A stretch of DNA of 64,000 bases from a virus. Its lineage: Duplodnaviria; Heunggongvirae; Uroviricota; Caudoviricetes. This document shows positions 14,429 through 59,741 of the stretch, in pieces; position 1 is the stretch's first letter; the number at the start of each line of letters is the position of its first letter. The DNA lies in the IMG/VR virus record IMGVR_UViG_3300006131_000005. One strand, given 5' to 3'. The position numbers and the translations under genes are program-made. The notes beneath the pieces were generated by a model, which did not search any database, was not told where the DNA came from, and saw nothing but the letters and a program-made list of their open reading frames with translations.

Positions 14429-14635
14429 ATGTTGGAAAATCTTAGATATCGAATTGCGCTTTACTTTATAAAGAAGGCAAGCGTTCAGATTGAGCGAGGA
14501 GAAATACAAAAGGGAATGAATAATTTCAAACGCTCTATTTGGATTGTGCCGCCATCCAAAGAATTAAGCGAGTTTGGCGATAGATTGCGGCAGACAGCAG
14601 AATCACACTTGCAAACCTTAGAGGAGGAGCTCTGA
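14429..14635 (+). CDS. Hypothetical protein
   Basis: ORF after GGAAAGGAG RBS. Confidence 0.35.
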   Translation: MLENLRYRIALYFIKKASVQIERGEIQKGMNNFKRSIWIVPPSKELSEFGDRLRQTAESHLQTLEEEL

Positions 14636-14655
14636 CACGGGCTCTTTCTTTTACG
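14624..14655 (+). terminator. Rho-independent terminator (hairpin + T-run), member of conserved GAGCCC-loop-GGGCTC family
   Basis: GAGCTCTGACACGGGCTC followed by TTTCTTTT. Confidence 0.5.
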
Positions 14656-14682
14656 CATATCTAACTATCCCTCTTATGGAGA
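14654..14682 (+). promoter_or_regulatory. Conserved intergenic motif copy (..CCCTCTTATGGAG)
   Basis: One of more than 20 copies of CACGCGAAAAACAC-N-CCTTTTATGGAG family, directly after terminator. Confidence 0.4.
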
Positions 14683-14715
14683 AATCCATATTTCGATTTG
14701 AAAGGAAAGTCGGTA

Positions 14716-14969
14716 TGAAAGAGTCAAAAGTGAAAGTATGGTTTGAGGAGAACAAGGATAAAATCTGTGCCGAAGTCCGCTGCATAAGCTGGTACGCCTT
14801 TGGATTCGGACTCGCTTGGTTTGTCAACGGCAAGCTGACCAAGTACCGGTGTGCATTGGGTATCGCAAACCTGCACGAGAAGGGACTGATGAAGTTCTGT
14901 GATCCTGCCACCGGAATGGAAGTCACGATCGACAAAGCAGTCGAGATTTCCAAGAAGATGAGAAAGTAA
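14716..14969 (+). CDS. Hypothetical protein
   Basis: ATG after GGAAAG; in-frame part of ORF 14676..14969. Confidence 0.4.
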
Positions 14970-14982
14970 GGATTACTCAGAC

Positions 14983-15018
14983 GGGAGCCGCCGTTTTGGC
15001 GGCTCCTCTTTTTTTTCT
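14983..15018 (+). terminator. Rho-independent terminator
   Basis: GGGAGCCGCCGTTTTGGCGGCTCC perfect hairpin + T10. Confidence 0.7.
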
Positions 15019-15075
15019 TTCTTACCCCTTGCACCGCCCGCTTTTTTTTGCTTTCTTACCCCTTGCACCGCCCGC
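15017..15075 (+). repeat. Tandem direct repeat 2 x 25 bp (CTTTCTTACCCCTTGCACCGCCCGC) separated by T-run
   Basis: Exact duplication upstream of zinc-ribbon gene; possible operator. Confidence 0.6.
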
Positions 15076-15151
15076 AATAATCATATATCATAGTGTAGGA
15101 GTTTGTCAAGATATTCCTACATAAAATTTTATTGATTTGCGGAGGTGGGAT

Positions 15152-15472
15152 ATGGTTAGTACGAATGTGTCAATCTGTCCCAAGTGCGGCGGGAAATTAA
15201 AGCACTATGACAGTGTTCAAAGAATTGTACGGACGAAGGCTCGGAGGACAAGCTGGATGAGGCTCCGCCGCCTCCGCTGCGTGGAGTGCGGTACTTTTCA
15301 CAGGGCGCTTCCGGAGGTTTTATTCCCGTACAAGCAGTACGAGGCTGAGGTCATCCGAGGCGTTCTGGAGGGCCTGATAACCTGCGAAACCATAGGCTTC
15401 GAGGACTACCCATGTGAGATGACGATGGAGCGTTGGAAAGCGCAGAAAGAACAGCTCCTGTTATGGAGGTGA
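15152..15472 (+). CDS. Zinc-ribbon protein (CPKCGG...CVECG)
   Basis: ATG after GGAGGTGGGAT; two CxxC pairs, basic linker. Confidence 0.45.
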   Translation: MVSTNVSICPKCGGKLKHYDSVQRIVRTKARRTSWMRLRRLRCVECGTFHRALPEVLFPYKQYEAEVIRGVLEGLITCETIGFEDYPCEMTMERWKAQKEQLLLWR

Positions 15473-15477
15473 CTGAC

Positions 15478-15762
15478 ATGGTAATCAGAAACAAAGAATA
15501 CTACAACCAGCTTGATGCTGAGGTTAAGAATGATTTGCGTACTTTGAACTATCACATCCGTCAGGCCGAAAGGTATAAGCATATTCACGAACTTACAAAA
15601 GGGCGTTCTGGACTATATGCTTTGATACATAAATGGGCCGAACGGAACAACCATTTTCATTGTAACGCAGGGCTTAAACTCGGAAAATCGAATTTGGTTT
15701 GGTTGCTTTACGAAATGACGTACCTACAAGATTACATCCAACAGAAAGAGGAGGAGCCCTGA
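15478..15762 (+). CDS. Hypothetical protein
   Basis: ATG after GGAGGTGACTGAC; part of ORF 15433..15762. Confidence 0.4.
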   Translation: MVIRNKEYYNQLDAEVKNDLRTLNYHIRQAERYKHIHELTKGRSGLYALIHKWAERNNHFHCNAGLKLGKSNLVWLLYEMTYLQDYIQQKEEEP

Positions 15763-15782
15763 CACGGGCTCTTTCTTTTTTA
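15754..15782 (+). terminator. Rho-independent terminator (GAGCCCTGACACGGGCTC + T-run)
   Basis: Conserved hairpin family. Confidence 0.6.
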
Positions 15783-15811
15783 CGCCAAATTCACGCCCTC
15801 TTTTATGGAAG
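15783..15811 (+). promoter_or_regulatory. Conserved intergenic motif copy (CGCCAAATTCACGCCCTCTTTTATGGAAG)
   Basis: Family motif after terminator. Confidence 0.4.
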
Positions 15812-15850
15812 ACAATAACCAAATTTTCTATATTTGAGAGGAGATTCACA

Positions 15851-16117
15851 ATGAACTTTTTTAAGAAGAACAAGGAAATCGAGATCATTACTCCGCTGGA
15901 GGGGAATTTGGACGTTCAGGCTTTCGCCGAGCAGTATGCAAAGGCCGGCACAATCATTGAAGTGAAGGTGCATGGTTCGCTGTATCAGTCCGACGGAAAC
16001 ATGGTAAGCGTCCGGTTCATCACCAAGGAGAAGTGGGAGACGATCGTGGAGCATTTCATGCGGAAGTTCAGTACAAGAAGACCTACGGTTGGAAACCGGT
16101 TTATGTTCTGCCACTGA
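15851..16117 (+). CDS. Hypothetical protein
   Basis: ATG after GAGAGGAGA RBS. Confidence 0.45.
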   Translation: MNFFKKNKEIEIITPLEGNLDVQAFAEQYAKAGTIIEVKVHGSLYQSDGNMVSVRFITKEKWETIVEHFMRKFSTRRPTVGNRFMFCH

Positions 16118-16124
16118 TGAGTTT

Positions 16125-16160
16125 GAGCCCAGCACGGGCTCTTACTCTCTTTATTTTCCC
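16125..16160 (+). terminator. Rho-independent terminator (GAGCCCAGCACGGGCTC + T-rich)
   Basis: Conserved hairpin family. Confidence 0.55.
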
Positions 16161-16219
16161 GCATGAAAAACACGGCCTGTAATGGAGAGACCACTACATA
16201 TTGTGAGAGGAGTAATCTT

Positions 16220-16408: not shown

Positions 16409-16416
16409 AGGAGTTT

Positions 16417-16450
16417 GAGCCCTGCATGGGCTCTTACTCTTTATATTTAC
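16417..16450 (+). terminator. Rho-independent terminator (GAGCCCTGCATGGGCTC)
   Basis: Conserved hairpin family. Confidence 0.55.
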
Positions 16451-16478
16451 GCTAAAACAACACCGCCTTTTATGGAGG
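16450..16478 (+). promoter_or_regulatory. Conserved intergenic motif copy (CGCTAAAACAACACCGCCTTTTATGGAGG)
   Basis: Family motif. Confidence 0.4.
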
Positions 16479-16486
16479 TGAAAGAC

Positions 16487-16762: not shown

Positions 16763-16876
16763 GCCATGGACCGAGGCCCTACACAGGGGCTCTTGGTCTT
16801 TCTTTTTCCACTTTGGTTGTTTGTACTCCGATGCGGTTGCTAACTTAGAATAGCCGTTGAAAGGAGGTAAGCGCAG

Positions 16877-17126: not shown

Positions 17127-17546
17127 ATGAGCACCACGATCAGACCGGCCCTGTCTTACAAGAACAAATACTGGATCGAGAAGCACCGCTACTATGAGCT
17201 GAAACATTTCTGCCTCCAGTATCCGGGCTGGAAAAGGGACTACATGGCCCTGGACGGACTGAAGAAGCAGCCCCACGACTTGTCTCTGCTGGTACGGACG
17301 AACGTCATCAGCGATCCAACGGCCCGGTGCGCCGAGGCCAAGCTGTTCTACTCCGAGCGCATGGAACTGGTGGAGCGGGTGGCCTACGAGACCGACCGCG
17401 ACCTGCATTCCTATATTCTCAAGGCGGTCACCGAGGGCCTTTCCTTTGAGACGTTGAAGACGCAGACCGATATTCCCTGCTGCCGGGACGTCTACTACGA
17501 CCTTTACCGCCGGTTCTTCTGGCTCCTGAACAGGGCCCGTGGATGA
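17127..17546 (+). CDS. Putative phage transcription regulator (ArpU/sigma-70 region-4-like), tentative
   Basis: 139 aa; C-terminal LSFETLKTQTDIPCCRDVYYDLYRRFFWLLNRAR resembles sigma region 4.2 HTH; weak. Confidence 0.3.
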   Translation: MSTTIRPALSYKNKYWIEKHRYYELKHFCLQYPGWKRDYMALDGLKKQPHDLSLLVRTNVISDPTARCAEAKLFYSERMELVERVAYETDRDLHSYILKAVTEGLSFETLKTQTDIPCCRDVYYDLYRRFFWLLNRARG

Positions 17547-17612
17547 CCCCCGCGAGCGGAACACAGCCCTTTATGGAAACCCAGACAATATTACATGAAG
17601 GAGTTGTTATCA

Positions 17613-17761
17613 TGAAGCGAATGGTTAGCTATATCAGAGGTATCTTTACGGGGTTCTGGATCGGAGCGGTCTTTGTGGCCACCGTGTTCATGAGCTGTAA
17701 GGATGTCCGCGATGGATGGAACGTCATCGCCGGCGACAAGCACGCCTGCATCAGAGGCTGA
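17613..17761 (+). CDS. Small membrane protein (49 aa)
   Basis: ATG after GAAGGAG; hydrophobic core FTGFWIGAVFVATVFM. Confidence 0.3.
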
Positions 17762-17774
17762 GTTTCAGTAAGGG

Positions 17775-17805
17775 AGAGTCCTGCAACAAGGGCTCTTACC
17801 CTTTC
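17775..17805 (+). terminator. Hairpin terminator (GAGTCCTGCAACAAGGGCTC)
   Basis: Conserved hairpin family (G-U wobble variant). Confidence 0.45.
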
Positions 17806-17837
17806 GCGCGAAATCCACACAGCCCTTTATGGAAACC
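17805..17837 (+). promoter_or_regulatory. Conserved intergenic motif copy (CGCGCGAAATCCACACAGCCCTTTATGGAAACC)
   Basis: Family motif. Confidence 0.4.
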
Positions 17838-17879
17838 AAAAGGTAAAACCAAAATCTTATTACATCGGAGGTTACAGTT

Positions 17880-18125
17880 ATGTACGACAACAAGAATTTG
17901 AGCAAGGAGTTCAAGGCGACGGTGGAGGAGACTAAGGGGTTGCTTATGGCGACGGCTATGGAGTCGTCCGTATCCACTATGGATGCTGACGACATCGTGA
18001 CCAACGTCAAAGCGCTCCGTCTGCTCAACCGGCTGCTGGATCTCTCCTGCGCCATGTTCGAGAAGCAGGACAAGCTGATGGACAAGATGGACAAGGCGAT
18101 GGACAAGTATCTGAAGGAGAACTAA
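17880..18125 (+). CDS. Hypothetical protein
   Basis: ATG after GGAGGTTACAGTT. Confidence 0.4.
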   Translation: MYDNKNLSKEFKATVEETKGLLMATAMESSVSTMDADDIVTNVKALRLLNRLLDLSCAMFEKQDKLMDKMDKAMDKYLKEN

Positions 18126-18192
18126 ACCCGAAGGGGCTGCGGAAACGCGGCCTCTTCCCCTTTCACGCATTTATATTTGAAAGGAGACGACC

Positions 18193-18711
18193 ATGGAACA
18201 GAAGATTTCATTGGACATGCCCATCGAGGAACTTGACTTTTCCACCCGATCCTACAACTGCCTGACCCGAAGCGGCATCCTTACGCTCGGCGCTCTCGTT
18301 GACACAAGCCGCCGGGAATTGGGCTGTATCAGGAACATGGGCGCAAAAAGTATGGAGGAAATCGAGGAAAAGGTACGCCTGTGCGGTTATGCACTCAAGG
18401 ACGCCCCGAGATGCGACCATCTTAAAAAGATGCAATTTCTGAAGAAGGCTCACGACCACTTCTTCGAGCTGACACGAAGTTTCAACTCCACACACTTTTC
18501 TCCGTACAGCCAGGATTGGGTGTATCCGTCCGTACTGTCGAGCAGTACCGGGTGGGAATACGTCAGAAAAGTGGTGCTCATGGCGTATGGCGTTTCTGAT
18601 ATTTGTTCTCTCCCGGACGACAAAGAAGAGGAAGTCAATGCCTTTGCGATTGAATTGACCGATATGCTCTTCGGCCGGCTCAGCAAGCAGACAACAGGCT
18701 ACGTCCGATAA
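18193..18711 (+). CDS. Protein with RNA polymerase alpha-subunit C-terminal-domain (alphaCTD)-like helix-hairpin-helix
   Basis: IEELDFSTRSYNCLTRSGILTLGALVDTSRRELGCIRNMGAKSMEEIEEKV aligns with RpoA CTD ([43 protein letters not shown]). Confidence 0.5.
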   Translation: MEQKISLDMPIEELDFSTRSYNCLTRSGILTLGALVDTSRRELGCIRNMGAKSMEEIEEKVRLCGYALKDAPRCDHLKKMQFLKKAHDHFFELTRSFNSTHFSPYSQDWVYPSVLSSSTGWEYVRKVVLMAYGVSDICSLPDDKEEEVNAFAIELTDMLFGRLSKQTTGYVR

Positions 18712-18717
18712 CTATTT

Positions 18718-18746
18718 CGCGTGCGTAACAAGCCCTTTTATGGAGG
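18718..18746 (+). promoter_or_regulatory. Conserved intergenic motif copy (CGCGTGCGTAACAAGCCCTTTTATGGAGG)
   Basis: Family motif. Confidence 0.4.
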
Positions 18747-18754
18747 TGACAGCT

Positions 18755-19033
18755 ATGGACGAAACCAAAGCTAAAAGCGCAGTCGAGGAACTGAGAGCCG
18801 TCGTCATGTGTCTGTATCGGTCAGCCGGTAATCTCGACAATATCTTACAGAGCATTGAGCTCGAATTGGATGGAACCAAATCGGACTCGCTCTACACTAA
18901 GGCATTTTGTCGGAGCAAGCGGATGTACCGGGAGGACGTGATGAAGGCGGCGGGATTCAGCGGCCTGGACAATCTGGAAGCTGAGGCGTGGAACAAACTG
19001 CTGGAGGCATTCTCCAAGGAGACGGAGTCCTGA
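18755..19033 (+). CDS. Hypothetical protein
   Basis: Internal ATG of ORF 18740..19033 after GGAGGTGACAGCT. Confidence 0.4.
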   Translation: MDETKAKSAVEELRAVVMCLYRSAGNLDNILQSIELELDGTKSDSLYTKAFCRSKRMYREDVMKAAGFSGLDNLEAEAWNKLLEAFSKETES

Positions 19034-19058
19034 CAAGGGCTCCTCTCTTTTATATTTT
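19024..19058 (+). terminator. Rho-independent terminator (GGAGTCCTGACAAGGGCTCC + T-run)
   Basis: Conserved hairpin family. Confidence 0.55.
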
Positions 19059-19153
19059 CCATACGCAGGTGACGGAAAAGTGTGGTAAATTGTTATCCTG
19101 AAAAATTCCCGGGTAGAAAAATCCGAAAAACAGTTTGAAAGGAGGTGTGCGCT

Positions 19154-19375
19154 ATGTGGATCGTACTCGCTTTGATCGGAGGTATTCTGGTTGGCGTCGC
19201 GGCTTCGGCCGTATATTTTCGTGCCAGGACTATCGGCTTGCTCAGGGTTGACCGCTCCGATCCGTCCGAACCCCCGTATCTCTTTCTGGAAGTGGAAAAG
19301 AATCCGGACGCCCTGCAACATGGGCGGCTGGTGGTTCTGCGAATCCGGAAAGAGAACCTGATCTCGCACGAATAA
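19154..19375 (+). CDS. Small membrane protein
   Basis: ATG after GAAAGGAGGTG; N-terminal TM WIVLALIGGILVGVAASAVYF. Confidence 0.4.
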   Translation: MWIVLALIGGILVGVAASAVYFRARTIGLLRVDRSDPSEPPYLFLEVEKNPDALQHGRLVVLRIRKENLISHE

Positions 19376-19423
19376 CACCCGCTTTTATGGAGCCATCTAC
19401 AAAACGAAGGAGGTTTATACGAG

Positions 19424-19885
19424 ATGGAAGAGATCAACAAATTGATGGATGAGGAGATCGTCAGCCAGATCAAAGGGCTGAAGACCCTCCAGGCCGGGTC
19501 GCAGGAGCAGACTGCGGCAGTCAAGAACCTGACAGCATTGTATGAGGCCAGGATCAACCAGGAGAAGGTCCAGTTGGACGCCGACGACAAGCGGGAGAAG
19601 CGTGAAATGGAGCGCGAGCAGCACCGCGCTGACGAAACTCTGAGAAAGAGTCAAGTGGCCGATGAGGCAGCGGCCAGGGAGCGCGACCTCAAGCTTAAGG
19701 AGGCCCAAGCGGAGGACCAGAAAATCGACCGGTTGGTTCGGGCTGGCATTGAGATGCTGGGGATCGGACTGCCTCTGGTGTGCTACGGGCACTGGTTCAG
19801 GAAGGGCCTCAAGTTCGAGGAGACCGGCAGCATCACATCGTCTATGATGCGGAATCTCATCAACAAGTTCAAGACCAAAAAGTAA
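19424..19885 (+). CDS. Coiled-coil protein with C-terminal TM segment
   Basis: RBS GAAGGAGG; E/K/R-rich heptad region then GIEMLGIGLPLVCYGHWF. Confidence 0.45.
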   Translation: MEEINKLMDEEIVSQIKGLKTLQAGSQEQTAAVKNLTALYEARINQEKVQLDADDKREKREMEREQHRADETLRKSQVADEAAARERDLKLKEAQAEDQKIDRLVRAGIEMLGIGLPLVCYGHWFRKGLKFEETGSITSSMMRNLINKFKTKK

Positions 19886-20012
19886 GAAGACGACTCCGAG
19901 GCGGGAGCCTGCGTAAAACGCGTGGGCTCCTCGCTTTTCCCCTTTTACAAACGGCCCGCATTATGCTATAATTCGTGTTATCGGCTTGATATTTGCGAAG
20001 GAGGAGCATACA

Positions 20013-20351
20013 ATGAGCAGGAATAGAGACGAATACGGCGCTATTTGGGGCCGTGGTCCTCTTCCGGGAGCCGGGGAGGAGCTTGACGGGCTTGGTTTAG
20101 CGCCTACGGACGACTTATACAGCGACGTGTACGATGAAGACGGCGACGAGGTTTTGTGTGCTATTTGCGGTTCCGAGGTGAAATGGAGAGAAGAGGACGG
20201 CGTGTATATGTGCCCGAATTGCGGACAAGTCTTCACCCGGACTGATTTCTTCAATTTTATCGGAGCGGAACCACCCGGAAAAGAGTGCTACACCTGCGAT
20301 TGTCTCTACCCCGGCTGCATGACCTGCCCATACGGGTATGGCGAGTTGTGA
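20013..20351 (+). CDS. Cys-rich zinc-finger protein
   Basis: ATG after GAAGGAGGAGCAT; CAICGS...CPNCG and CYTCDCLYPGCMTCPYGYG clusters. Confidence 0.45.
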   Translation: MSRNRDEYGAIWGRGPLPGAGEELDGLGLAPTDDLYSDVYDEDGDEVLCAICGSEVKWREEDGVYMCPNCGQVFTRTDFFNFIGAEPPGKECYTCDCLYPGCMTCPYGYGEL

Positions 20352-20364
20352 ACAGAAAGGTATC

Positions 20365-20455
20365 GTGTTGGAGGCCTCCAACACGTCATGCGGATATCCG
20401 CATGAAAAAATTTTTCGTCGATGGGCCCATCGACATTCCGTATGTATATACGGAA
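20365..20455. repeat. Cluster of four consecutive palindromes (20-bp GTGTTGGAGGCCTCCAACAC; 18-bp CATGCGGATATCCGCATG; 16-bp TCGATGGGCCCATCGA; 8-bp-arm TTCCGTAT..ATACGGAA)
   Basis: Perfect dyad symmetries in 187-bp intergenic region upstream of lipoprotein gene. Confidence 0.65.
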
Positions 20456-20537
20456 TGATACCCCTCTGAATACATAATTTATAGAAAACGGCGTCCGCGC
20501 CGAAACTCGCTTACTGAAATGTGAAAGGAGAATTTCC

Positions 20538-21737
20538 ATGAAATGTAAGAAATTGTTTGCCTTTACTCTGGTCCTAGCGCTTATATTTGCTCTTGCTGGA
20601 TGCAGTGGCGGAGGAGACCGCTTGGTATGGCCCAACACATCACTTGGCGAACGCCTGCCCGGGCCTCCGGTGAAAACTGGCGAAATCACTGTCGAGACTT
20701 CTGATGTTCTGATGGTGGATGCCTTTGATGCAACCGAGAAGGACTACCAGAGGTTTGTCGAGAGTTGCGAGAAGAAAGGGTTCACAATCGACAGTAAGAA
20801 GGAGGACTACACCTTCTCGGCCTATGATGATGATGGATATTTCATCGAACTTCGATACTGGAAAGACGATCAGAAGATCAACATCACTGTCAAGGCATCC
20901 ATCGAGACTGACTTTGCTGAGTTCAGTTGGCCGAAAAGCGAAATCGCGAGTTCTGTTCCCATCCCGAAATCCAACATTGGAACGGTCTCCTGGGAGAGCG
21001 AAAACGGCTTTGTGATCTATGTCGGAGAAACCAGCAAAGAGGACTATGACGAGTATGTCAACCAGTGCTATAATGCCGGATTCACGATTGATTATAACAA
21101 GGGCGACGACTATTTCAGAGGAGTAAATGAGGATGGTTATCATCTGAACGTCAACTACGAGTGGAACCAGACCATGTTTGTCCGAATGGATACCTCCGAG
21201 GCCCTTGGAAAAGAGCCACCTGAGAAGACAACGCCATCTTCGGAGCAGCCGTCCGTACCCTCTGATACCCCGCCGGCTCAGACCGACCCTGTAGAGACAA
21301 CTCATCCGGTGGAGACAGAGCAGCCCAGCTCAACAGCACCTACGGATGAGCCGAGCGCGGTCACTTACTCTACAAATGACTATGAAACCGCAAAAAACGG
21401 AAATTCCGGCGTGTTCTCCTATGTGAATCGAGGGCCGAGCTATGATATCTACTGGATCATCGACTTTGACGAGGGGTATGTCTACTACTTCACCGAAGGA
21501 AATGGCGAGGAGACCTGCGACCGTCTTGCAATCGAGTCGGGAGACTTGAATGATGTCCTTATCATTACCTACCACGATGGTGGCGATACCTGGTCTTATG
21601 GTCTCCACTTCCACTACAAAAACCAGCCAACCAAGCTGATCATGCAAGACAACGATGGCTTTGAGTATGAATACTCTACTACCAATCTGACCAGCGCTAT
21701 TGCATTAAGAGACAGCAAGACCATCCGTGATTATTGA
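20538..21737 (+). CDS. Lipoprotein with two ~35-aa internal repeats and Pro/Thr/Glu-rich linker
   Basis: Signal peptide + lipobox LAGC; repeats GFTIDSKKEDYTFSAYDDDGYFIELRY / GFTIDYNKGDDYFRGVNEDGYHLNVNY. Confidence 0.6.
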   Translation: MKCKKLFAFTLVLALIFALAGCSGGGDRLVWPNTSLGERLPGPPVKTGEITVETSDVLMVDAFDATEKDYQRFVESCEKKGFTIDSKKEDYTFSAYDDDGYFIELRYWKDDQKINITVKASIETDFAEFSWPKSEIASSVPIPKSNIGTVSWESENGFVIYVGETSKEDYDEYVNQCYNAGFTIDYNKGDDYFRGVNEDGYHLNVNYEWNQTMFVRMDTSEALGKEPPEKTTPSSEQPSVPSDTPPAQTDPVETTHPVETEQPSSTAPTDEPSAVTYSTNDYETAKNGNSGVFSYVNRGPSYDIYWIIDFDEGYVYYFTEGNGEETCDRLAIESGDLNDVLIITYHDGGDTWSYGLHFHYKNQPTKLIMQDNDGFEYEYSTTNLTSAIALRDSKTIRDY

Positions 21738-21798
21738 TTACCGCACCCAAAACATCCTCCTTTATGGAGCCAGTCCAATTTTAACAAGGAGGAACGAG

Positions 21799-21975
21799 CA
21801 TGACACGGGAAGAAATCATCGAGATGATCTCAAACATGTACCTCAAGGCGGTGGGAGCCTATCAGTGCTGTCAGAAGCACGGAAAGGAGGATCGACTGCC
21901 GCTGTTGAGGCGGGATGCGATCGTCTGCGATCATATTCTCACGCAGATCGAGAAGGCCGAGGCTAAAGCTGGATA
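21799..21975 (+). CDS. Small protein (58 aa)
   Basis: ATG after AAGGAGGAACGAGC; below ORF-track size cut-off. Confidence 0.3.
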
Positions 21976-21990
21976 AGTTCCACTACACGG

Positions 21991-22026
21991 AGGAGCCCTA
22001 TTACAGGGCTCCTCTTTTATTTTTTA
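21991..22026 (+). terminator. Rho-independent terminator (GGAGCCCTATTACAGGGCTCC + T-run)
   Basis: Conserved hairpin family. Confidence 0.6.
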
Positions 22027-22188
22027 GGAGGTAGTTTTGTGAAAAGGCTGAAACTTGGTTTTTGGCTTCGTGCGATTGCTTTCGGGGATTTCCTGCATAA
22101 TCTGAGCAACCAGGTGGTACAGAAAGCCCTCGATGCGCTGAATAATATATGCGAGGCTGAGACGAACCAGCGGAAAAAGGATTGACTC

Positions 22189-22548
22189 TTGCGCTACCAT
22201 TACGAAAAGCCCGCCATCTATCTGTCTATGTACGGCAAGCGTTATATTTGCGAGCACCCGGTCTATGGTAGCTGCACACTCTTTGAAATCAACAATAAGG
22301 GCTTGGCCGTGATACAGCAACGGTTCGATTCTGACACGAAGAGCACGTTCTGGACAGAGGTAGATCCGTGGCTGACGGACGCTTTATATTTACACCCCAA
22401 TTTCAAGGAGTTCTTTGATAGTCGGGCCGGCGCTTGTACGGACGGTCTCTATCCTACCGTAACCATCCGGCAGATCATGTGGGCGCTGAAGATGAAGCCT
22501 CTACCAAAGGAGCGGTGGGAAACTGTGTTTGACCGTAAAAATATTTGA
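22189..22548 (+). CDS. Hypothetical protein (start uncertain; upstream 49-codon GTG ORF 22038..22187 in other frame)
   Basis: TTG-initiated ORF; possible frameshifted gene. Confidence 0.3.
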   Translation: MRYHYEKPAIYLSMYGKRYICEHPVYGSCTLFEINNKGLAVIQQRFDSDTKSTFWTEVDPWLTDALYLHPNFKEFFDSRAGACTDGLYPTVTIRQIMWALKMKPLPKERWETVFDRKNI

Positions 22549-22583
22549 AAGTGGTGATATCTACGAAGAAAGTAGCATTTCAG

Positions 22584-22874
22584 ATGTCCGCATTAAACAA
22601 TAAGCAGATGTGGGTTTGCGACATCATGACGCGGCTGGGTCTTATCAAGTATACAGAATATGATGATGGCGAAATCGTGGCGCATCTGCTGGAATCTCCT
22701 ATCACCGGAAAGCCCTTGGACATTTGGTGGTGGGTCGAGAGTTCGTCTGTCGTTCACTGGATATTTTTCTTCATCTGGGGTAGCCCGCTGTGCGTTGACA
22801 AAGAGGCCAAGCAGCGCGCAAGTGAGTTGAAGCGATTGGGCTGGATCGGGCAAAAAGAAGAAACGCCGCAATAA
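22584..22874 (+). CDS. Hypothetical protein
   Basis: Internal ATG of ORF 22545..22874. Confidence 0.35.
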   Translation: MSALNNKQMWVCDIMTRLGLIKYTEYDDGEIVAHLLESPITGKPLDIWWWVESSSVVHWIFFFIWGSPLCVDKEAKQRASELKRLGWIGQKEETPQ

Positions 22875-22905
22875 ATACACGGTCTTTTGTGGAGGTGAAA
22901 AGATC

Positions 22906-23097: not shown

Positions 23098-23193
23098 AGC
23101 ATCAACCAAGGAGAAAGGCCCGTGTGGGCCCTTTTCCTTTGCGCCATATTTACGTTCTCTTTTATGGAAATCAATCAAAAGGAGGAGCCGATT

Positions 23194-23331: not shown

Positions 23332-23368
23332 GTTCCACAGGAAGGAGTCCGCATGGGCTCTTTCTTTT

Positions 23369-23400
23369 CACGCGAGAAATACACCGTCCTTTATGAGAAG
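23369..23400 (+). promoter_or_regulatory. Conserved intergenic motif copy (CACGCGAGAAATACACCGTCCTTTATGAGAAG)
   Basis: Family motif after hairpin 23344..23370. Confidence 0.4.
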
Positions 23401-23624: not shown

Positions 23625-23704
23625 GGTCTGACGAGGGAGAGCCCACACGGGCTTTTCCCTTTTCCGCAAAAAACGCATCTCCTATTGTGAAAGGAGGTGC
23701 GACG

Positions 23705-23939: not shown

Positions 23940-24125
23940 ATGCCTGAAATCGTGAACAAGATCATCAGCCGTCTGGATATTTCCTCTCTCCGGTTCAAGC
24001 GGTTGGAGGAGGATAAGCGCCAGAAGCCCTCCTTGCTCAAGGAGGTCGTCTCCTCCCCGGAGAAGTTCAAACTGGAGGCCATCATCGAGGGCGACGAGAT
24101 TCAGGTCACCATCAAGAGGCGGTAA
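23940..24125 (+). CDS. Hypothetical small protein
   Basis: ATG after GAAAGGAGAAGCGTC. Confidence 0.35.
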   Translation: MPEIVNKIISRLDISSLRFKRLEEDKRQKPSLLKEVVSSPEKFKLEAIIEGDEIQVTIKRR

Positions 24126-24179
24126 AAACAAGTTCTGTTATGGAGACACCCAAACAAAACTTGAAAGGAGACAGACATT

Positions 24180-24542: not shown

Positions 24543-24647
24543 CTCAGACGAGGGAGGCCCTGTAGCAAGGGCTTTTCCCTTTTATATTTCGGCCTCGCGA
24601 TGAAAACACCGCCTCTAATGAAGAACACATTTAGAGGAGGAGTTTAT

Positions 24648-24839
24648 ATGCCAAGGAAAGATTTCATCAAGGTGCTTCTGCTGACGGCCATTTGTGTGGC
24701 GGCGTTCGTAGGATATTTCTACATCGCCATACAGTACCCGTTGGTAGGAATCTATGGGACGATATTCTTCGCAATGTACCCCAAGGTCAAAAGTGTGTAC
24801 CAAAACAATCAAAAGAAGGGAGATAAGGCCGAGCCCTGA
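24648..24839 (+). CDS. Small membrane protein
   Basis: ATG after AGAGGAGGAGTTTAT; two hydrophobic helices. Confidence 0.35.
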   Translation: MPRKDFIKVLLLTAICVAAFVGYFYIAIQYPLVGIYGTIFFAMYPKVKSVYQNNQKKGDKAEP

Positions 24840-24859
24840 ACAGGGGCTCTTCGCCTTTC

Positions 24860-24889
24860 CACGCGAAAAACACATATCCTTTTATGGAG
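24860..24889 (+). promoter_or_regulatory. Conserved intergenic motif, best consensus copy (CACGCGAAAAACACATATCCTTTTATGGAG), immediately upstream of tRNA-like gene
   Basis: Family motif; here it precedes a non-coding RNA, so the TATGGAG is not a start codon context. Confidence 0.45.
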
Positions 24890-24960
24890 AAACAGTTAGC
24901 TCAATGGTAGAGCGACAGACTAAAATCTGTGTGTTGCGAGTTCGAATCTCGCGCTGCTTC
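24890..24960 (+). tRNA. tRNA-like gene with aberrant 6-nt anticodon loop (CTAAAA); anticodon undetermined
   Basis: Canonical D-arm (GCTC-AATGGTA-GAGC), perfect T-arm GCGAG-TTCGAAT-CTCGC, 7-bp acceptor stem with one A-C mismatch; 71 nt, one short of standard; followed by terminator 24972..25005. Confidence 0.5.
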
Positions 24961-24971
24961 TCCGACGGCAT

Positions 24972-26656: not shown

Positions 26657-26706
26657 CCGATACGCAGAAAACGCAATGACTGTTATGGAAAGGAGGTAAA
26701 CGCTTC

Positions 26707-28017: not shown

Positions 28018-28047
28018 CGCGCGAAAAACGCACACGCTGTTATGGAG
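28018..28047 (+). promoter_or_regulatory. Conserved intergenic motif copy (CGCGCGAAAAACGCACACGCTGTTATGGAG)
   Basis: Family motif. Confidence 0.4.
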
Positions 28048-36200: not shown

Positions 36201-37401
36201 GGACATCGCCTCCATGCACCCCAGTTCCATCATCGCGGAGGAGCTCTTCGGCCCCGAGTTCACCAAGCGGTTCGAGGAGATCAAGGAAGCCCGTGTCGCC
36301 ATCAAGCACAAGGACTTTGACCGGGCCCGCAAGATGCTGAACGGCGCTTTGGCAAAGTATCTGACCGATGAGAACGCCGCTGCTGATCTGGCTCAGGCTC
36401 TGAAGATTGCCATCAACTCGGTTTACGGCCTTACCTCTGCCAACTTCGAGAACCCCTTCCGAGACAACCGGAACCGGGACAACATCGTCGCCAAACGCGG
36501 AGCCCTGTTCATGGTCAACCTCAAGCACGAGGTCCAGAAACGGGGCTTTACTGTTGCCCACATCAAGACGGACTCCATCAAGATCCCCGATGCTACGCCG
36601 GAGATCATTCAGTTTGTCACCGACTACGGCAAGCTCTACGGTTATATTTTCGAGCATGAAGACACTTATGACCGTATGTGTCTGGTGAACAATGCCGTCT
36701 ACATCGCCAAGTATAAGACCCCTCATATTGACAAAAAAACTGGGAAAGAAATCTGGTGGACGGCCACCGGGACGCAGTTCCAGGTTCCCTATGTGTTCAA
36801 GAAGCTCTTCAGTCATGAGGAGATCACCTTCGAGGACATGTGCGAGACCAAGTCGGTAAAGGATGCTCTATATTTGGATATGAACGAGAAGCTGCCGGAT
36901 GTGTCCGAGTATGAGAAAGAGCATACGACTCTATGGAAGGATATTTGCGATATGACGCTCCCTCATGATGCAGAAATGGAGCGTAAATGTGCAAGAGCCG
37001 AGGAGTTGTCTGATCTCATTGCTCAGGGTCACAACTACGTCTTTATCGGAAAGGTCGGTCAGTTCTGTCCTATGATGGACGGCTTCGGCGGCGGTGTCCT
37101 GCTTCGCCAAACGGATAACAAGAAGACCGGCGAAAAGGGCTATGCCGCTGTGACTGGCACGAAGGGCTACCGCTGGATGGAATCCGAGATGGTCAGACAA
37201 CTGGACAAGCAAGACGGTATCGACCGGAGCTATTATGACGCCATGGTGGACGCGGCTATTCAGGACATTTCCGGTTATGGTGACTTCGAGTGGTTCGTCT
37301 CCGAAGACCCTTACGTCAAGGTCGAGGACGATACCCCACCGTGGGAAAGTCCCGGCGAGCCTTGGCAGTCCGACGACAACATCGCCTTTGATGTGCGCTA
37401 A
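33271..37401 (+). CDS. Multidomain replicase: SF3/D5-like helicase (Walker [10 protein letters not shown]) - primase-polymerase (prim-pol) - 3'-5' exonuclease - family B DNA polymerase
   Basis: P-loop at aa ~185; [15 protein letters not shown] and GIHLHYIY (prim-pol); Exo I FYDVEVFP, Exo II YCDNDV; Pol motif [14 protein letters not shown], motif [11 protein letters not shown], motif [10 protein letters not shown]. Confidence 0.8.
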
Positions 37402-37429
37402 AACTACACACTCTGTTGTGGAAGGAGAG

Positions 37430-37460
37430 GATGCCTGTAACAGGGCGTCTTCTCTTTTAT
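37430..37460 (+). terminator. Hairpin terminator + T-run after replicase
   Basis: GCCTGTAACAGGGC stem followed by TCTTCTCTTTTATATTTTT. Confidence 0.45.
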
Positions 37461-45370: not shown

Positions 45371-45402
45371 GCACGCAGAAATCACATTTCCTTCTATGGA
45401 GA
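45371..45402 (+). promoter_or_regulatory. Conserved intergenic motif copy (GCACGCAGAAATCACATTTCCTTCTATGGAG)
   Basis: Family motif. Confidence 0.4.
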
Positions 45403-54432: not shown

Positions 54433-54514
54433 GAAGTGTCAGCGTCATCTACCGCGCGAAGAAAACACCCTATATTGTGGAGAACAACACTCAACAATAA
54501 AAGGAGTTTTTGAA

Positions 54515-55029: not shown

Positions 55030-55359
55030 ATGAGAGTCAAGAAAGCCGGTGGCAGGATATTCGGAGGAACAATGTCCGCTGCCGAGAAAAAAGCCATGGA
55101 CTTGGAAATCCAGCGTCAACTCGCCGAGTACGACCGGAAGCATCTGATCGAGATCGACGCCATGATCCTCTGGGTGCTGCATGAACGGTTTGGTTTCGGC
55201 CCCAAAAGGTTGCGGCAATACTACGACAGCTTCCGGGCCTGCACCAACGAGCTGGTTGAGCGGTACCAGATGGACACTGGTGATGACGTGTGGCTCTGTA
55301 CACAGATGCTGAAGCGCATTGGTGTGGACGTCGAGCAGTGGCATAAGGAGGTGAATTGA
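55030..55359 (+). CDS. Hypothetical protein
   Basis: ATG after TTGGAGGCTACC. Confidence 0.4.
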   Translation: MRVKKAGGRIFGGTMSAAEKKAMDLEIQRQLAEYDRKHLIEIDAMILWVLHERFGFGPKRLRQYYDSFRACTNELVERYQMDTGDDVWLCTQMLKRIGVDVEQWHKEVN

Positions 55360-55799
55360 TGCTCTACGAAATTACCTATTTATCGAAATATTACATCTCC
55401 CCTGGGCATTGCCTCGAATGTCCGCTACACTTTATCAATTTGAAGCCAGAACCCGGAGAACCGGCGACAGGGTGCGAATTGACCGGGGAATTTCTCCCGG
55501 ATGAGTGGGACATCGAAAATATTCCATGGGATAAATGTCCAGTGACTCAATGCGAAGAATATCCGACATCCGGTCTTGATAAGTTCGGAAAACTTGTGCG
55601 GGATATTCGTATCACCAGAAGCCTGCGGCTCTATGACATGGCTAAAGAACTTGGCCTATCTCCTGCCGAACTCTCGGCCATCGAGTGCGGGAGGAAACCT
55701 GTTCCGGATTGGTTCATTCCGGCGCTGGATAAGGCCTATGGCATTGGCGACGCCTGTGTTTGGACGCTGGAGTTGCTCGCTAAGAATCGAGGTGAATAA
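55359..55799 (+). CDS. Cys-rich N-terminal domain fused to XRE-type helix-turn-helix
   Basis: ATG after AAGGAGGTGAATTG; C-term IRITRSLRLYDMAKELGLSPAELSAIECGRK = HTH_XRE. Confidence 0.5.
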   Translation: MLYEITYLSKYYISPGHCLECPLHFINLKPEPGEPATGCELTGEFLPDEWDIENIPWDKCPVTQCEEYPTSGLDKFGKLVRDIRITRSLRLYDMAKELGLSPAELSAIECGRKPVPDWFIPALDKAYGIGDACVWTLELLAKNRGE

Positions 55800-57360: not shown

Positions 57361-57398
57361 TCCGCCAACAATACGTTACATAAAAAGGAGTAAATAAA

Positions 57399-58343
57399 AT
57401 GATTATTCTGCTTGTTATCCTCGCGATCATCGCCATCGCTGGCTTCGCCATCACCACCGCCCTTCGCAAAGGGCTCGACCCAAAGGACGAGTACGATAAG
57501 GACCGGCTGAAAATTCTCGGCATCATCCGGGGTGCGGTCATCGGCGGCTGTGTCGTCATCTTCGCTATTGCGATGCTGATCGGCAGCGTCAAAATCATGG
57601 ATCAGACCGAGGTCGGCATCGTGAAGACCTTCGGTAAGGTCGATCACACTGTTTCCGGCGGCCTCAATTTCGTGAACCCGATTTCCGATACGGTGGAAGT
57701 CATGGACCTGCGGGTACACGTCAATGAGGCGTCCTTTGCGAGCTACACCAAGGATGCTCAGCCGTTGACGGCCGCAATCGAGTATCAGTACGAGCCCATC
57801 GCCGCCCAGGCCATGCAAATCGTCTCCCAATACGGCTCCTATGAGATTCTGGAGACCAAACTTCAGGCCGCTGTTGAGGAGCGCGCTAAAATCGTGTTTG
57901 CACGCTACGGCGCTATGACGCTGCTGGAGAATCGCGCCACCCTTTCCGCTCAGGTGCAGGAGGAAGTTAAGGAGTTGGAGGAACTGTTTCCGGTCAACTT
58001 CACCCAAGTGGTCGTGAAAGACATCGACTTCTCCGACGCTTTCGAGCAGGCCGTCGAAGCCAAGATGCAGGCGGAGCAGAACGCGCTGCGAGCTGAGAAT
58101 GAGAAACAGGAAGCCATCACCAGGGCGGAGCAGGAGCGTGAGGTTGCCCGCGTTGAGGCGGAGGCTGCTGTTCTGGCTGCTGAAGGTGAAGCCCGCGCCC
58201 TGGAAATCACTCGTGAGGCCCTTGAGAACATGCCCGACACCTGGATTGCCCAGCAGTATTTAGAGAAGTGGGACGGTAAGCTGCCTCAGTTCATTACCGG
58301 CGACGGCTCCGGCTTGATGTTGACGCCCAACCTGGAGCAGTGA
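57399..58343 (+). CDS. SPFH/Band-7 (prohibitin/HflC-like) membrane protein
   Basis: N-terminal TMs then TEVGIVKTFGKV..GLNFVNPI core and long A/E/Q-rich coiled-coil. Confidence 0.65.
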   Translation: MIILLVILAIIAIAGFAITTALRKGLDPKDEYDKDRLKILGIIRGAVIGGCVVIFAIAMLIGSVKIMDQTEVGIVKTFGKVDHTVSGGLNFVNPISDTVEVMDLRVHVNEASFASYTKDAQPLTAAIEYQYEPIAAQAMQIVSQYGSYEILETKLQAAVEERAKIVFARYGAMTLLENRATLSAQVQEEVKELEELFPVNFTQVVVKDIDFSDAFEQAVEAKMQAEQNALRAENEKQEAITRAEQEREVARVEAEAAVLAAEGEARALEITREALENMPDTWIAQQYLEKWDGKLPQFITGDGSGLMLTPNLEQ

Positions 58344-58353
58344 GGCGAGGAAG

Positions 58354-58629
58354 ATGACATTTATCATTCGGCTGGTCATATTTCTGATCCGCCTGAAGCT
58401 CCATGTGAGAAAGGGCGAGCGGTTCCAGTTCGACAACCAGAAAACCGATTCGGTCTACTGGTTCACGGAGAGCTCTCTCATGAAGATGGAGTACGGGCAT
58501 CGCTATGAAGCCAGCGTCAGCCTGAATTGGCTGCTGAACCCAGACTGTAAAATCAGACCGCCATATTTAGCCCGGATGCCGAGTCGTAGCAACTTTCTAA
58601 CAAAGGGTGAACGGTGGGAAAGAGGTTAG
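58354..58629 (+). CDS. Hypothetical protein
   Basis: ORF only. Confidence 0.3.
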   Translation: MTFIIRLVIFLIRLKLHVRKGERFQFDNQKTDSVYWFTESSLMKMEYGHRYEASVSLNWLLNPDCKIRPPYLARMPSRSNFLTKGERWERG

Positions 58630-58633
58630 CATA

Positions 58634-58936
58634 ATGGGCTTATCAAAATTAGCCGCCAAGTGTCAGACGTGTCCGTTCGTATCCACCTGTGGCCATAAGC
58701 GCATGGAGGAGGTCGGGTATCTTATCCCGTCCGTACCAGCGGAGCAGCAGAGTGTGGATATTTCGCAGGGCTCGACAACCATTGAGCAGATTGCGTTGCA
58801 GAACTCCATAGCCGTGGATGAGATTGTACGGATGGCGCAAAGCCCCTTCGAGGAGAACATACGCACATATCTGAACCTGATAGAAAGGAGCATTATGACG
58901 GTGTCGGAGGTGAGAGAAATACACCATCTGAAGTAA
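58634..58936 (+). CDS. Hypothetical protein
   Basis: ATG after GGGAAAGAGGTTAGCATA. Confidence 0.4.
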   Translation: MGLSKLAAKCQTCPFVSTCGHKRMEEVGYLIPSVPAEQQSVDISQGSTTIEQIALQNSIAVDEIVRMAQSPFEENIRTYLNLIERSIMTVSEVREIHHLK

Positions 58937-59004
58937 CCCGAGACGCGATTTTGGCCCGGTTCTGTCTATCTTAGGATAAAAATATTTCTAACTTAGAATA
59001 GGAT

Positions 59005-59350
59005 TCGGGCCATTTTCGCGGCCAAATCTGCTCCTACTTTTGGTAGTTCCAGGTTATATTTCTTGGCCACTTTTGTGTTTTGAAAGTGGGCAGAGGGCGA
59101 AAAAAGCGGGCATTTGGCCACTTTTGCATCGGATTTTGAGGACTCGCGAAAGAGTGAAAACGGGCATTTGGCCACTTTTTCCGGCCATTTGGCCACTTTT
59201 GAAACCCCAAAGTGGCCAGCAAAAACCCAGTATTTGCAAGGGTTTGAGGGCTCTCTGCCCACTTTGCCCACTTTTTTCTCTTAACTAATTGCGATAAAAA
59301 ATTTAAGGTATATAGTAATAAGAGCCCCAAAAAGTGGACAAGTGGCCAAA
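59005..59350. repeat. Iteron cluster: ~8 copies of GGCCA(C/T)TTT / GGGCATTTGGCCACTTTT in direct and inverted orientation, incl. palindrome GGCCACTTTTGAAACCCCAAAGTGGCC
   Basis: 430-bp non-coding region; candidate packaging (pac/cos) site, origin or operator array. Confidence 0.7.
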
Positions 59351-59369
59351 ACGGATATGAGGAGGTTTT

Positions 59370-59555
59370 ATGAGCGAGAAAATCACATGGGGCGATATTT
59401 ACAAGGACTTCAAGACCCGGCTGCCTACCTGGGCGAAGCTGGCGGTCGATTACCGTCCGTATGATTACATGACCATCGTCGTATATTTTGCCGACGGTTC
59501 GAGGATGCTGTACGACGGCCTGCAAAAGCTGCCTCGACTTCTGGTGACGGTATAA
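59370..59555 (+). CDS. Hypothetical small protein
   Basis: ATG after TGAGGAGGTTTT. Confidence 0.4.
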   Translation: MSEKITWGDIYKDFKTRLPTWAKLAVDYRPYDYMTIVVYFADGSRMLYDGLQKLPRLLVTV

Positions 59556-59589
59556 CCGCCGGACCTGATGAAGATGAAACATATTTTAT

Positions 59590-59628
59590 GAGAGCCTGTG
59601 TTTGAGGAACATGGGCTCTTCTTTTTGC
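59590..59628 (+). terminator. Hairpin terminator + T-run
   Basis: GAGAGCC..GGGCTCT stem, then TTCTTTTT. Confidence 0.45.
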
Positions 59629-59640
59629 GCTGTTTTCCGG

Positions 59641-59670
59641 CACGCGAAAAAAACATGCCCTTTTATGAAG
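59641..59670 (+). promoter_or_regulatory. Conserved intergenic motif copy (CACGCGAAAAAAACATGCCCTTTTATGAAG)
   Basis: Family motif. Confidence 0.4.
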
Positions 59671-59741
59671 AGAGAGGATAAAAGCGCCATTTTTGAAAAT
59701 GACACACTTCCTCTTTTACTTTTGGAAAGGAGGGTCCGCTT

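Follow-up and report, generated by a model that had tools for sequence, protein, structure and literature searches.

Single-chain relatives of the cellular RNA polymerases (RNAPs), such as YonO, crAss gp66 and P23-45 gp64, are a young field in which promoter finding is largely open. The window studied here, a stretch of 64,000 nucleotides from a tailed phage (IMG/VR record IMGVR_UViG_3300006131_000005), contains a reiterated 28-bp motif and, at 60574..63357, an open reading frame (ORF) of 927 aa that is predicted to encode such an enzyme. Judging from the sequence, the motif is probably the promoter of this phage-encoded two-barrel RNAP.

Among the described systems, YonO of the Bacillus prophage SPbeta resembles the 927-aa protein in being a single-chain two-barrel protein of ~100 kDa from a temperate Firmicutes phage, with an R-x-P-H...D-x-D-G-D core. 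It was proven experimentally to be the RNAP of the late genes, which are transcribed as one long operon; one start is known, and the promoter sequence was still undetermined in the 2017 characterisation paper (PMC5467207). The two proteins differ in family (PHROG 8308 for YonO, PHROG 4291 for the 927-aa protein) and in their ends, a zinc-ribbon-like CxxC tail in YonO as opposed to a helix-turn-helix (HTH) domain. The non-virion RNAPs of P23-45 (gp64) and P74-26 (gp62), lytic Thermus-infecting phages that also possess a tape-measure-fused virion RNAP, are ~590 aa long and share ~15% identity with the 927-aa protein. No terminal HTH domains are reported for gp62/gp64, whereas the 927-aa protein has them at both the N- and the C-terminus. 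Each of the two-barrel RNAPs of P23-45 has its own reiterated promoter motif (bioRxiv 10.1101/2022.12.01.518664), which provides a precedent; the P23-45/P74-26 motif is described as GC-rich and less conserved.

Full-length homologues of the 927-aa protein with 38-53% identity were found by tblastn in 250 phage genomes, where they are annotated as 'HTH DNA-binding protein' or 'RNA-dependent RNA polymerase'. They characterise a supercluster of actinophages and Firmicutes phages (Streptomyces BI, Arthrobacter AM/AU/AW, Gordonia DJ, Rhodococcus CC, Microbacterium EL, Lactococcus 1706-like, and Faecalibacterium Oengus). As in the window, the RNAP gene of these phages lies after nucleases and before the head genes, and a small-gene array follows the tail genes (bioRxiv 10.1101/842583; PMC5513430). 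RNAP activity was proposed in these papers from HHpred and the DxDGD motif, while promoters, intergenic motifs and terminators are unmentioned (bioRxiv 10.1101/842583; PMC5513430). The preprint also reported the N- and C-terminal HTH domains, again without mention of promoters (bioRxiv 10.1101/842583). In the literature searched, neither a published assay nor a described promoter was found for this RNAP family. The window phage differs from the supercluster phages in being larger (~85-90 kb), temperate and from gut Clostridia.

The promoters of T7, T3 and SP6 are contiguous elements of ~23-28 bp that reach the start, with an AT-rich stretch before +1 and a G-purine start; copies recur along the genome in one orientation and are used together with hairpin terminators. 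At the start, the layouts of the T7 class (TATA/GGGAGA, the slash marking the start) and the window (TTAT/GGAGA) are alike, but the upstream boxes differ in sequence, and T7 RNAP is a family-A single-subunit enzyme unrelated to the two-barrel one. The T7-type likeness suggested by the original prediction may hold for the contiguous promoter layout, with a putative start at its 3' edge, and fails for the enzyme, which is predicted to be two-barrel and gives no PF00940 match.

A position weight matrix (PWM) was built from the 18 coordinates of the original prediction, all of which turned out to be genuine motif copies, and the window was scanned on both strands. At a threshold of >=21 bits, 24 hits were obtained on the + strand and none on the - strand, in agreement with the claim of more than 20 copies. 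Six of the 24 lie outside the training set (15441, 16160, 23665, 24118, 24596, 54455), and the copies beyond the original list, also six, start at 14386, 15441, 16160, 17551, 24596 and 54455. The shuffled controls proposed for the motif also favour it, as order-1 Markov shuffles of the window gave a mean of 0.28 hits at >=12 bits.

The consensus is CGC-N7-ACA-N4-C-TTTTATGGAG, 28 bp without gaps. With the T of TATGGA numbered 0, the fixed blocks are CGC at -21..-19, ACA at -11..-9, C at -4 and TTTTATGGA at -3..+5. The profile, with an information content of ~27 bits, consists of C-21, G-20, C-19, an A-rich tract at -17..-14, A-11, C-10, A-9 and C-4, followed by T-3 to T0, A1, T2, G3, G4, A5 and R6. 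Its conserved blocks are spaced by ~10 bp. The variable N4-6 spacer described earlier disappears when the copies are aligned on TATGGA, the distance from CGC to TATGGA being constant at 18 nt. Among 165 unique copies from the window and from Clostridia prophages, which were selected with the PWM, C-10, G+3, T+2, T-1 and G-20 are 98-100% conserved. The copies in the window, with their PWM scores in bits and the hairpins and Shine-Dalgarno sequences (SDs) next to them, are as follows.

14386..14413, + strand: copy 1 (CGC..TATGGAA), 34.4; in the 55-bp gap from the integrase start to the first + gene
14654..14681, + strand: copy 2, 26.7; hairpin 14627-14644 upstream
15441..15468, + strand: copy 3, 24.6, outside training set; terminal GGAGGTGA is the SD for ATG 15478
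15783..15810, + strand: copy 4, 34.9; hairpin 15752-15773 upstream
16160..16187, + strand: copy 5, 28.7, outside training set; hairpin 16124-16142 upstream
16450..16477, + strand: copy 6, 38.1; hairpin 16416-16434 upstream; GGAGGTGA is the SD of ATG 16487
17551..17578, + strand: copy 7, 30.3
17807..17834, + strand: copy 8, 35.7; hairpin 17775-17796 upstream
18718..18745, + strand: copy 9, 29.8; GGAGGTGA is the SD of ATG 18755
19365..19392, + strand: copy 10, 33.5
21742..21769, + strand: copy 11, 26.7
22867..22894, + strand: copy 12, 30.5; TGTGGAGGTGA is the SD of ATG 22906
23142..23169, + strand: copy 13, 32.0; hairpin 23114-23133 upstream
23371..23398, + strand: copy 14, 30.9; hairpin 23344-23360 upstream
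23665..23692, + strand: copy 15, 24.8, outside training set; hairpin 23638-23655 upstream
24118..24145, + strand: copy 16, 23.8, outside training set; weakest upstream box, GGC for CGC
24596..24623, + strand: copy 17, 21.5, outside training set; hairpin 24555-24574 upstream
24862..24889, + strand: copy 18, best match, 39.5; hairpin 24830-24850 upstream; abuts the tRNA-like gene
26663..26690, + strand: copy 19, 31.5; SD AAGGAGG begins 6 nt past the T of TATGGA
28020..28047, + strand: copy 20, 34.9
37396..37423, + strand: copy 21, 31.4; at the end of the primase/helicase gene; hairpin and T-run 37429-37449 directly 3'
45374..45401, + strand: copy 22, 34.5
54455..54482, + strand: copy 23, 22.6, outside training set
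59643..59670, + strand: copy 24, 37.8; hairpin 59592-59618 upstream; heads the endonuclease-exonuclease-RNAP operon; position kept in 62 of 63 related contigs

The motif had been called genome-wide, but the copies are clustered. Twenty of the 24 fall within the small-gene array at 14.4-28.1 kb and the remaining four at 37.4, 45.4, 54.5 and 59.6 kb; the tail genes (1-13 kb) and the 10 kb of head genes past the window end (L005) are free of copies. Each copy is located either in a gap separating two + strand genes or across the final codons of the preceding ORF, with overlap in seven cases, and the distance from motif to start codon ranges from 14 to 96 nt. A cassette of hairpin and motif had been proposed for most gaps. 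Such a hairpin, GAG(C/T)CC-loop-GGGCTC with a T-run, does lie upstream of 11 of the 24 copies at a gap of 8-21 nt, but the other copies lack it, and several GAGCCC...GGGCTC hairpins have no motif downstream.

14627..14644, + strand: example of the terminator-like class GAG(C/T)CC-loop-GGGCTC-TTTCTTTT, a hairpin followed by a T-run; further hairpins of the class are those given above with copies 4, 5, 6, 8, 13, 14, 15, 17, 18 and 24

These hairpins and T-runs fit the form of intrinsic (rho-independent) terminators, termination itself being predicted, and terminator-like sites (a GC-rich hairpin directly followed by a T-run) number 38 in the 13-32 kb region, compared with 18.3 expected. The arms are specific beyond a generic GC stem, and AACA is found in 20 of 60 loops from the window and the prophage loci. 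Common ancestry of the cassettes may account for the shared arms and loops, or the phage enzyme may respond to them as a sequence-specific termination signal. Moreover, some copies are followed within ~10 nt by a hairpin and T-run whose 5' arm lies at or near the predicted +1, for instance GGAGAGAAG-gaaaa-CTTCTCTTT-TTATTTT. These occur in the window (37396-37449), in loci L044, L091 and L118, and in contig MT835495 (L007 609-680 and 1197-1260), and could represent very short transcripts, leader terminators or 5'-terminal stabilising hairpins.

The position of the transcription start is constrained by a tRNA-like gene and by the SDs.

24889..24963, + strand: tRNA-like gene with a 6-nt anticodon loop (ARAGORN)

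As stated in the original prediction, this gene directly follows a motif copy, and it is recognised by the Rfam tRNA model with 49 bits at 24890-24960. It begins 4-5 nt past the TTTTAT of the copy at 24862-24889, itself behind the terminator 24830-24850. The order terminator, motif, tRNA-like gene recurs in at least 11 other prophages, where the 5' end of the tRNA-like gene is 3-4 nt past the hexamer. Folded from the invariant G, the window RNA is cloverleaf-like, with a 10-bp terminal stem (GGAGAAACAG/CUGCUUCUCC) starting at that G (24886). SD positions are bimodal among the 165 unique copies: in 53 of 154, the SD core starts at +3..+8 and the start codon is at +12..+23; examples from the window are TATGGAGGTGAAAGACATG at 16471, which follows a terminator, and TATGGAAAGGAGG at 26684. 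Hairpins beginning at the invariant G were seen in three copies, too few to weigh. A sigma-70-type start 7 nt past the hexamer would remove the SDs and truncate the tRNA-like RNA; therefore, the start is placed at or just before the 99%-conserved G3. On these sequence relations, transcription would start at the invariant G at the 3' edge of the motif, from which we infer the exact +1.

The tRNA-like gene (window 24886-24966) is conserved and has an abnormal anticodon loop; it also occurs in L025, L048, L057, L099, L104, L108, L112, L125, L132 and L018. The loop is 6 nt in the window (CUAAAA), and in the relatives ARAGORN reports 'tRNA-???' with 2- or 4-nt anticodons or makes no call. The acceptor stem has 9-10 bp and reaches the predicted 5' end of the transcript, and in the relatives a T-run follows directly. 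Promoter, tRNA-like RNA and terminator would form a minimal unit of ~85 nt, whose RNA might act as a decoy or as a tRNA resistant to nucleases. Some gene callers take the motif's internal ATG (TTATGG) for a start codon, e.g., at L003 7336-7503 (corresponding to ~23164 in the window), which results in wrong 5' ends of the downstream genes.

The enzyme and the genes that separate it from copy 24 are arranged as follows.

59742..60570, + strand: two nuclease genes from copy 24 to the RNAP gene, 59742-60041 endonuclease-like and 60013-60570 exonuclease (PHROG 93, 3953)
60574..63357, + strand: predicted single-chain two-barrel RNA polymerase, 927 aa; N- and C-terminal HTH; RYPH 498-501, GADFDGD 542-548, sigma-region-4-like HTH 904-927

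Pfam recognises in the 927-aa protein only the C-terminal HTH, which is sigma-70 region-4-like, and not PF00940. The aspartate loop of the beta' barrel reads SGADFDGDTVMV, with VRYPHGG ~40 residues upstream. GADFDGD and R498-Y-P500-H501 are invariant in family alignments (11 and 22 sequences for GADFDGD), and YonO has LRSPHL...FDNDGD at matching spacing. The invariant R-x-P(-H) residues listed by Ruprich-Robert and Thuriaux (PMC2919709), equivalent to R446/P448 of Rpb1, are matched as well. The protein gives a full-length match to PHROG 4291 'RNA-dependent RNA polymerase' and a local match (residues 477-554, E 2.3e-4) to PHROG 8308, which was verified to be the YonO family. A single-sequence AlphaFold model was unusable (predicted local distance difference test, pLDDT, 45) and was replaced by an AF2 model from a 22-sequence alignment (pLDDT 75, predicted TM-score 0.62). 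In a Foldseek search of the PDB, the top 11 matches were all QDE-1, RDR2 or P74-26 gp62 (E 6e-7 to 3.5e-4; QDE-1 6e-7, gp62 1e-4), with the largest subunits of Pol IV and Pol II and bacterial beta' ranking next. Searches of the PDB sequences with phmmer and the family profile retrieved HTH parts only. By sequence and structural model, the 927-aa ORF has the fold, i.e., two double-psi beta-barrel domains in one chain, and the catalytic signature of a two-barrel RNAP and is predicted to be one, which strengthens its nomination as the phage RNAP. It would represent a separate family within the QDE-1/YonO/P23-45-gp64 fold class and not YonO proper, because a direct comparison with YonO was negative (see below). 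The JGI annotation calls the homologues P0138, P0216 and P0240 'structural protein'. This label is a lead only; if it derives from virion proteomics, the enzyme may be packaged.

No sigma-factor or T7-like RNAP (PF00940) Pfam hits are on record for the genes of 14-73 kb, and split beta/beta' genes were not found. Two smaller genes had been put forward as further candidates for an RNAP or sigma-like factor, and neither is a sigma factor: the protein of 17127-17546 belongs to a PHROG of unknown function, and 18193-18711 encodes, within the promoter array, a 172-aa protein with an RNAP alpha subunit C-terminal domain (alpha-CTD; PF03118, E 1e-21, residues 3-61) and no PHROG match. The latter is present in the phage variants L001 and L003 and replaced in L002, and it may interfere with or recruit host RNAP.

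The association between motif and enzyme extends to distant relatives. In three cultured lytic phages whose RNAPs are 38-51% identical to that of the window, repeats were searched for as over-represented 10-mers, without the window PWM. Each phage has its own repeat on the + strand only, at the start of the small-gene array after the tail/lysis genes; together the repeats of the three conform to (CGC/TTT)-N7-ACA-N5-TATA(A/G)T-GA.

Gordonia phage Secretariat, ~10 copies: TCGCAnnnATTACAyGCCyTATAATGAGACCCCTAyGAAAGGA
Streptomyces phage Scap1, 6 copies: CGCAAGtTTTACAtGCnTTATAGTGAGACCCCTAC
Lactococcus phage P092, ~11 copies: TTTAAGTTTTACATACCCTATAATGA

The geometry common to the window and these phages is (CGC or TTT)-N7-ACA-N5-T(A/T)T(A/T/G)(A/G)T-G, and, as in the window, a hairpin and T-run precede many copies. 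In Secretariat and Scap1, a weaker variant of the motif lies upstream of the nuclease-RNAP operon, and two good copies precede the RNAP gene in the human-gut contig MT835495. The IMG/VR set provided 80 loci with an RNAP 53-77% identical to that of the window, 63 of them with >=1.5 kb of upstream sequence. A + strand motif was found within 2.5 kb upstream of the RNAP gene in 62 of these 63, usually at -885 to -920. Overall, the IMG/VR loci gave 168 hits on the + strand and none on the - strand, with a single one in the downstream head genes. When species-representative genomes were scanned for a pattern of 16 specified bases, most hits were due to chance, and only loci with >=3 one-strand PWM hits were kept. 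About 35 loci (<=8 kb) with 3-11 one-strand copies remained; they are prophages of cultured Clostridia, including Hungatella hathewayi WAL-18680, Enterocloster lavalensis, [Ruminococcus] torques ATCC 27756, Clostridium leptum DSM 753 and Neglectibacter caecimuris. The motif co-occurs with the RNAP gene in every relative examined, in two bacterial phyla.

Taken as the promoter of the 927-aa RNAP, the motif would span ~-24 to +4 when +1 is the invariant G (...TTATG/G). In 5'-to-3' order, it would consist of the CGC box (-24..-22), an A/T tract, the ACA box (-14..-12, one helical turn past CGC), the C (-7), the AT-rich hexamer T(T/A)TTAT (-6..-1), which would melt, and a purine-rich start G(G/A)AR. 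The HTH domains built into the polymerase, one of them sigma-region-4-like, would read both upstream boxes from the same side of the double helix. Within the 14-28 kb array, an intrinsic-terminator hairpin precedes about half of the putative promoters; the array would therefore be split into many short, separately driven units, one of them a tRNA-like RNA. The copy at 59643 would drive the nuclease-RNAP operon and probably also the head and tail genes, as no later copy or strong terminator is present. We infer that the 927-aa enzyme recognises the promoter without host factors, and likewise which polymerase the terminators would stop. The dedicated phage transcription system envisaged earlier is supported by the fold and signature of the enzyme, by the co-occurrence of motif and gene, and by the start-site geometry, which together point to a link between enzyme and promoter.

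Several points weigh against this assignment. In the Gordonia and Lactococcus relatives, the hexamer matches the universal sigma-A -10 element TATAAT perfectly, so that host RNAP could use it in those phages, alone or helped by a phage activator. The RNAP gene is located downstream of one of its own putative promoters, which leaves the first round of expression unexplained; the virion, read-through or a host promoter would have to supply the first molecules. As for the related enzymes, hhalign of the family against YonO alone gave nothing (probability 0.3%), a scan of SPbeta with the window PWM showed no comparable motif near the YonO start region, and the study of the virion RNAP (gp66) of crAss phage phi14:2 found no common promoter motif. 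YonO-type enzymes lack the flap domain, which is linked to hairpin termination (PMC5467207), so that the 927-aa enzyme may or may not stop at the hairpins. A bolder form of the proposal would make the enzyme self-sufficient and sigma-independent, reading duplex promoters with its HTH domains, starting at the G of CGC-N7-ACA-N5-TWTWAT/G, maybe carried in the virion, and transcribing the early array and its own gene without host RNAP; we regard it as conceivable but doubtful.

The serious rival, because of the TATAAT hexamer of the Gordonia and Lactococcus phages, is a promoter of the host RNAP. T(A/T)TTAT or TATAAT would then be the sigma-A -10 element, and a phage protein on the CGC and ACA boxes would replace -35 recognition, as MotA/AsiA do at the T4 middle promoters; possible sources of this activator are the HTH domains of the 927-aa protein and the alpha-CTD-like protein of 18193-18711. 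T4 middle promoters have no -35 element but a conserved box, the MotA box, near -30 and an AT-rich hexamer. With the hexamer as -10, the CGC box also falls near -30. Besides TATAAT in Secretariat and P092, TATTAT accounts for 34% of the copies from Clostridia, the array includes a gene for an alpha-CTD-like protein, and the 5' ends of the P092 tRNAs lie ~8 nt past TATAAT, which fits a sigma-type start. Nonetheless, the -35 region is unconserved and without a -35 element, and a sigma-70 scan reports none of the 20 copies in 13-32 kb. T4 middle promoters need host sigma-70 and start ~7 nt past the hexamer, whereas the start in the window is constrained to 3-5 nt and the hexamer mostly lacks the key A: at its position 2 (equivalent to A-11), A is absent in 22 of the 24 copies, which have T or G instead. 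A start 7 nt past the hexamer would, moreover, cut off the tRNA-like 5' end at 3-5 nt and the SD cores at +3..+8, and the rigid geometry is constant across Streptomyces, Lactococcus and Oscillospiraceae hosts. On balance, a host promoter seems unlikely. Two further promoter types were considered and dropped. For a sigma-54 promoter (boxes one turn apart, -24/-12), the GG and TGC invariants are absent by eye and the spacing is 2 nt shorter; the likeness to the AR9 late promoter (AACA-N6-TW) was judged a coincidence, split beta/beta' genes not having been found.

Two other rivals are protein binding and RNA function unrelated to initiation. Binding sites of an immunity repressor, scattered like the asymmetric stoperators of Cluster A mycobacteriophages, could silence the prophage by blocking elongation. 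The phage is temperate, and the sites are asymmetric, co-oriented with transcription in all 24 cases and located between genes or over gene ends, which are the hallmarks of stoperators (PMC13313380). But homologous motifs occupy the same places in Scap1, Secretariat and P092, whose annotated records list no integrase/repressor; Lactococcus phage 1706 is described as virulent; and the Arthrobacter AM/AU clusters have no integrase. The motif is also 28 bp long with three blocks, compared with 13-14 bp for stoperators, and it is promoter-like in abutting tRNA and SD sequences and following terminators, so that an operator is highly improbable. Hardly any credence is given to an RNA-level signal, i.e., an element for 5'-UTR (untranslated region) processing, stability or translation of read-through transcripts. 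The motif does lie just 5' of start codons and its 3' end (GGAG) is SD-like, and the RegB nuclease of T4 cleaves at GGAG. As RNA, however, the 35-nt region is no more structured than shuffles (mean z -0.07); half of the copies lie directly behind a terminator and would therefore rarely be transcribed; one precedes a tRNA-like gene instead of an ORF; the distance to the start codon is as variable as given above; and blocks at 10-bp intervals fit the recognition of duplex DNA. The preferred explanation remains a promoter read by the 927-aa enzyme.

The window covers most of a temperate siphovirus-like genome, the whole phage being ~85-90 kb. Tail genes at 1-13 kb and a tyrosine integrase at 13138-14373 on the - strand are followed by the small-gene array on the + strand, the replication genes (including a 1376-aa DUF5906 primase/helicase, a single-stranded DNA-binding protein, a methylase and a ligase-like protein), the nucleotide-metabolism genes, the two nucleases and the 927-aa ORF; past the window come connector, terminase, portal and protease. 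Exact copies of the window's proteins were found in >1,500 assembly-collection blocks, the contigs being up to ~85 kb long, and 20 kb of the window had no megablast match among GenBank phages. The phage lives in gut Clostridia. In the cultured mouse-gut isolate Oscillospiraceae bacterium C18_42 (L080; MGBC000153.12, 112-120 kb), copies near-identical to those at 17551-22894 of the window were found, with the window's 45374 copy in the same 8-kb stretch, so that ~22 kb are missing there. This suggests an Oscillospiraceae host and a deleted or rearranged prophage.

Within the array, two good matches to sigma-70-type promoters were seen at 19944-19972 (TTTACA-17-TG-TATAAT, 11/12) and 19986-20014 (TTGATA-17-TACAAT), upstream of a gene (20013-20351) for a small protein with a weak TFIIB/RRN7-like zinc-ribbon hit; they are a possible entry point for host RNAP. 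An HTH_31 protein encoded at 55356-55799 is an example of a candidate phage repressor. Among the tail genes, an RT-18 RNA (Rfam RF03021, 49 bits, above the gathering score), a type associated with reverse-transcriptase genes, lies at 7965-8044, directly 5' of a 407-aa ORF (8047-9270) in a region adjoining a 957-aa Big_3 tail-fibre-like gene (4746-7619). The 407-aa ORF may be a reverse transcriptase belonging to a diversity-generating retroelement that acts on the tail fibre.

Systems in which a phage RNAP is served by promoters of its own are known, and RNAP activity had been suspected in this enzyme family before. Relative to the literature searched, the novelty lies in the promoter, its conservation from actinophages to prophages of gut Clostridia, and the layout of terminator-insulated micro-operons. 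The family of the 927-aa enzyme is found in hundreds of sequenced actinophages, in dairy Lactococcus phages and in very common gut prophages, and is mostly annotated as 'HTH DNA-binding protein'. The promoter reading explains the odd small-gene array noted in these phage clusters, and knowledge of the motif would improve annotation where its ATG is miscalled as a start codon. A consensus that crosses phyla and comes with a predicted +1 makes the reading testable on a few oligonucleotide templates. If the enzyme is self-sufficient, it would provide a new orthogonal expression system for Gram-positive bacteria; phages from Actinobacteria to Clostridia would then share a compact, orthogonal, non-T7 transcription system in which promoter recognition is fused into a minimal RNAP core of the multisubunit type.

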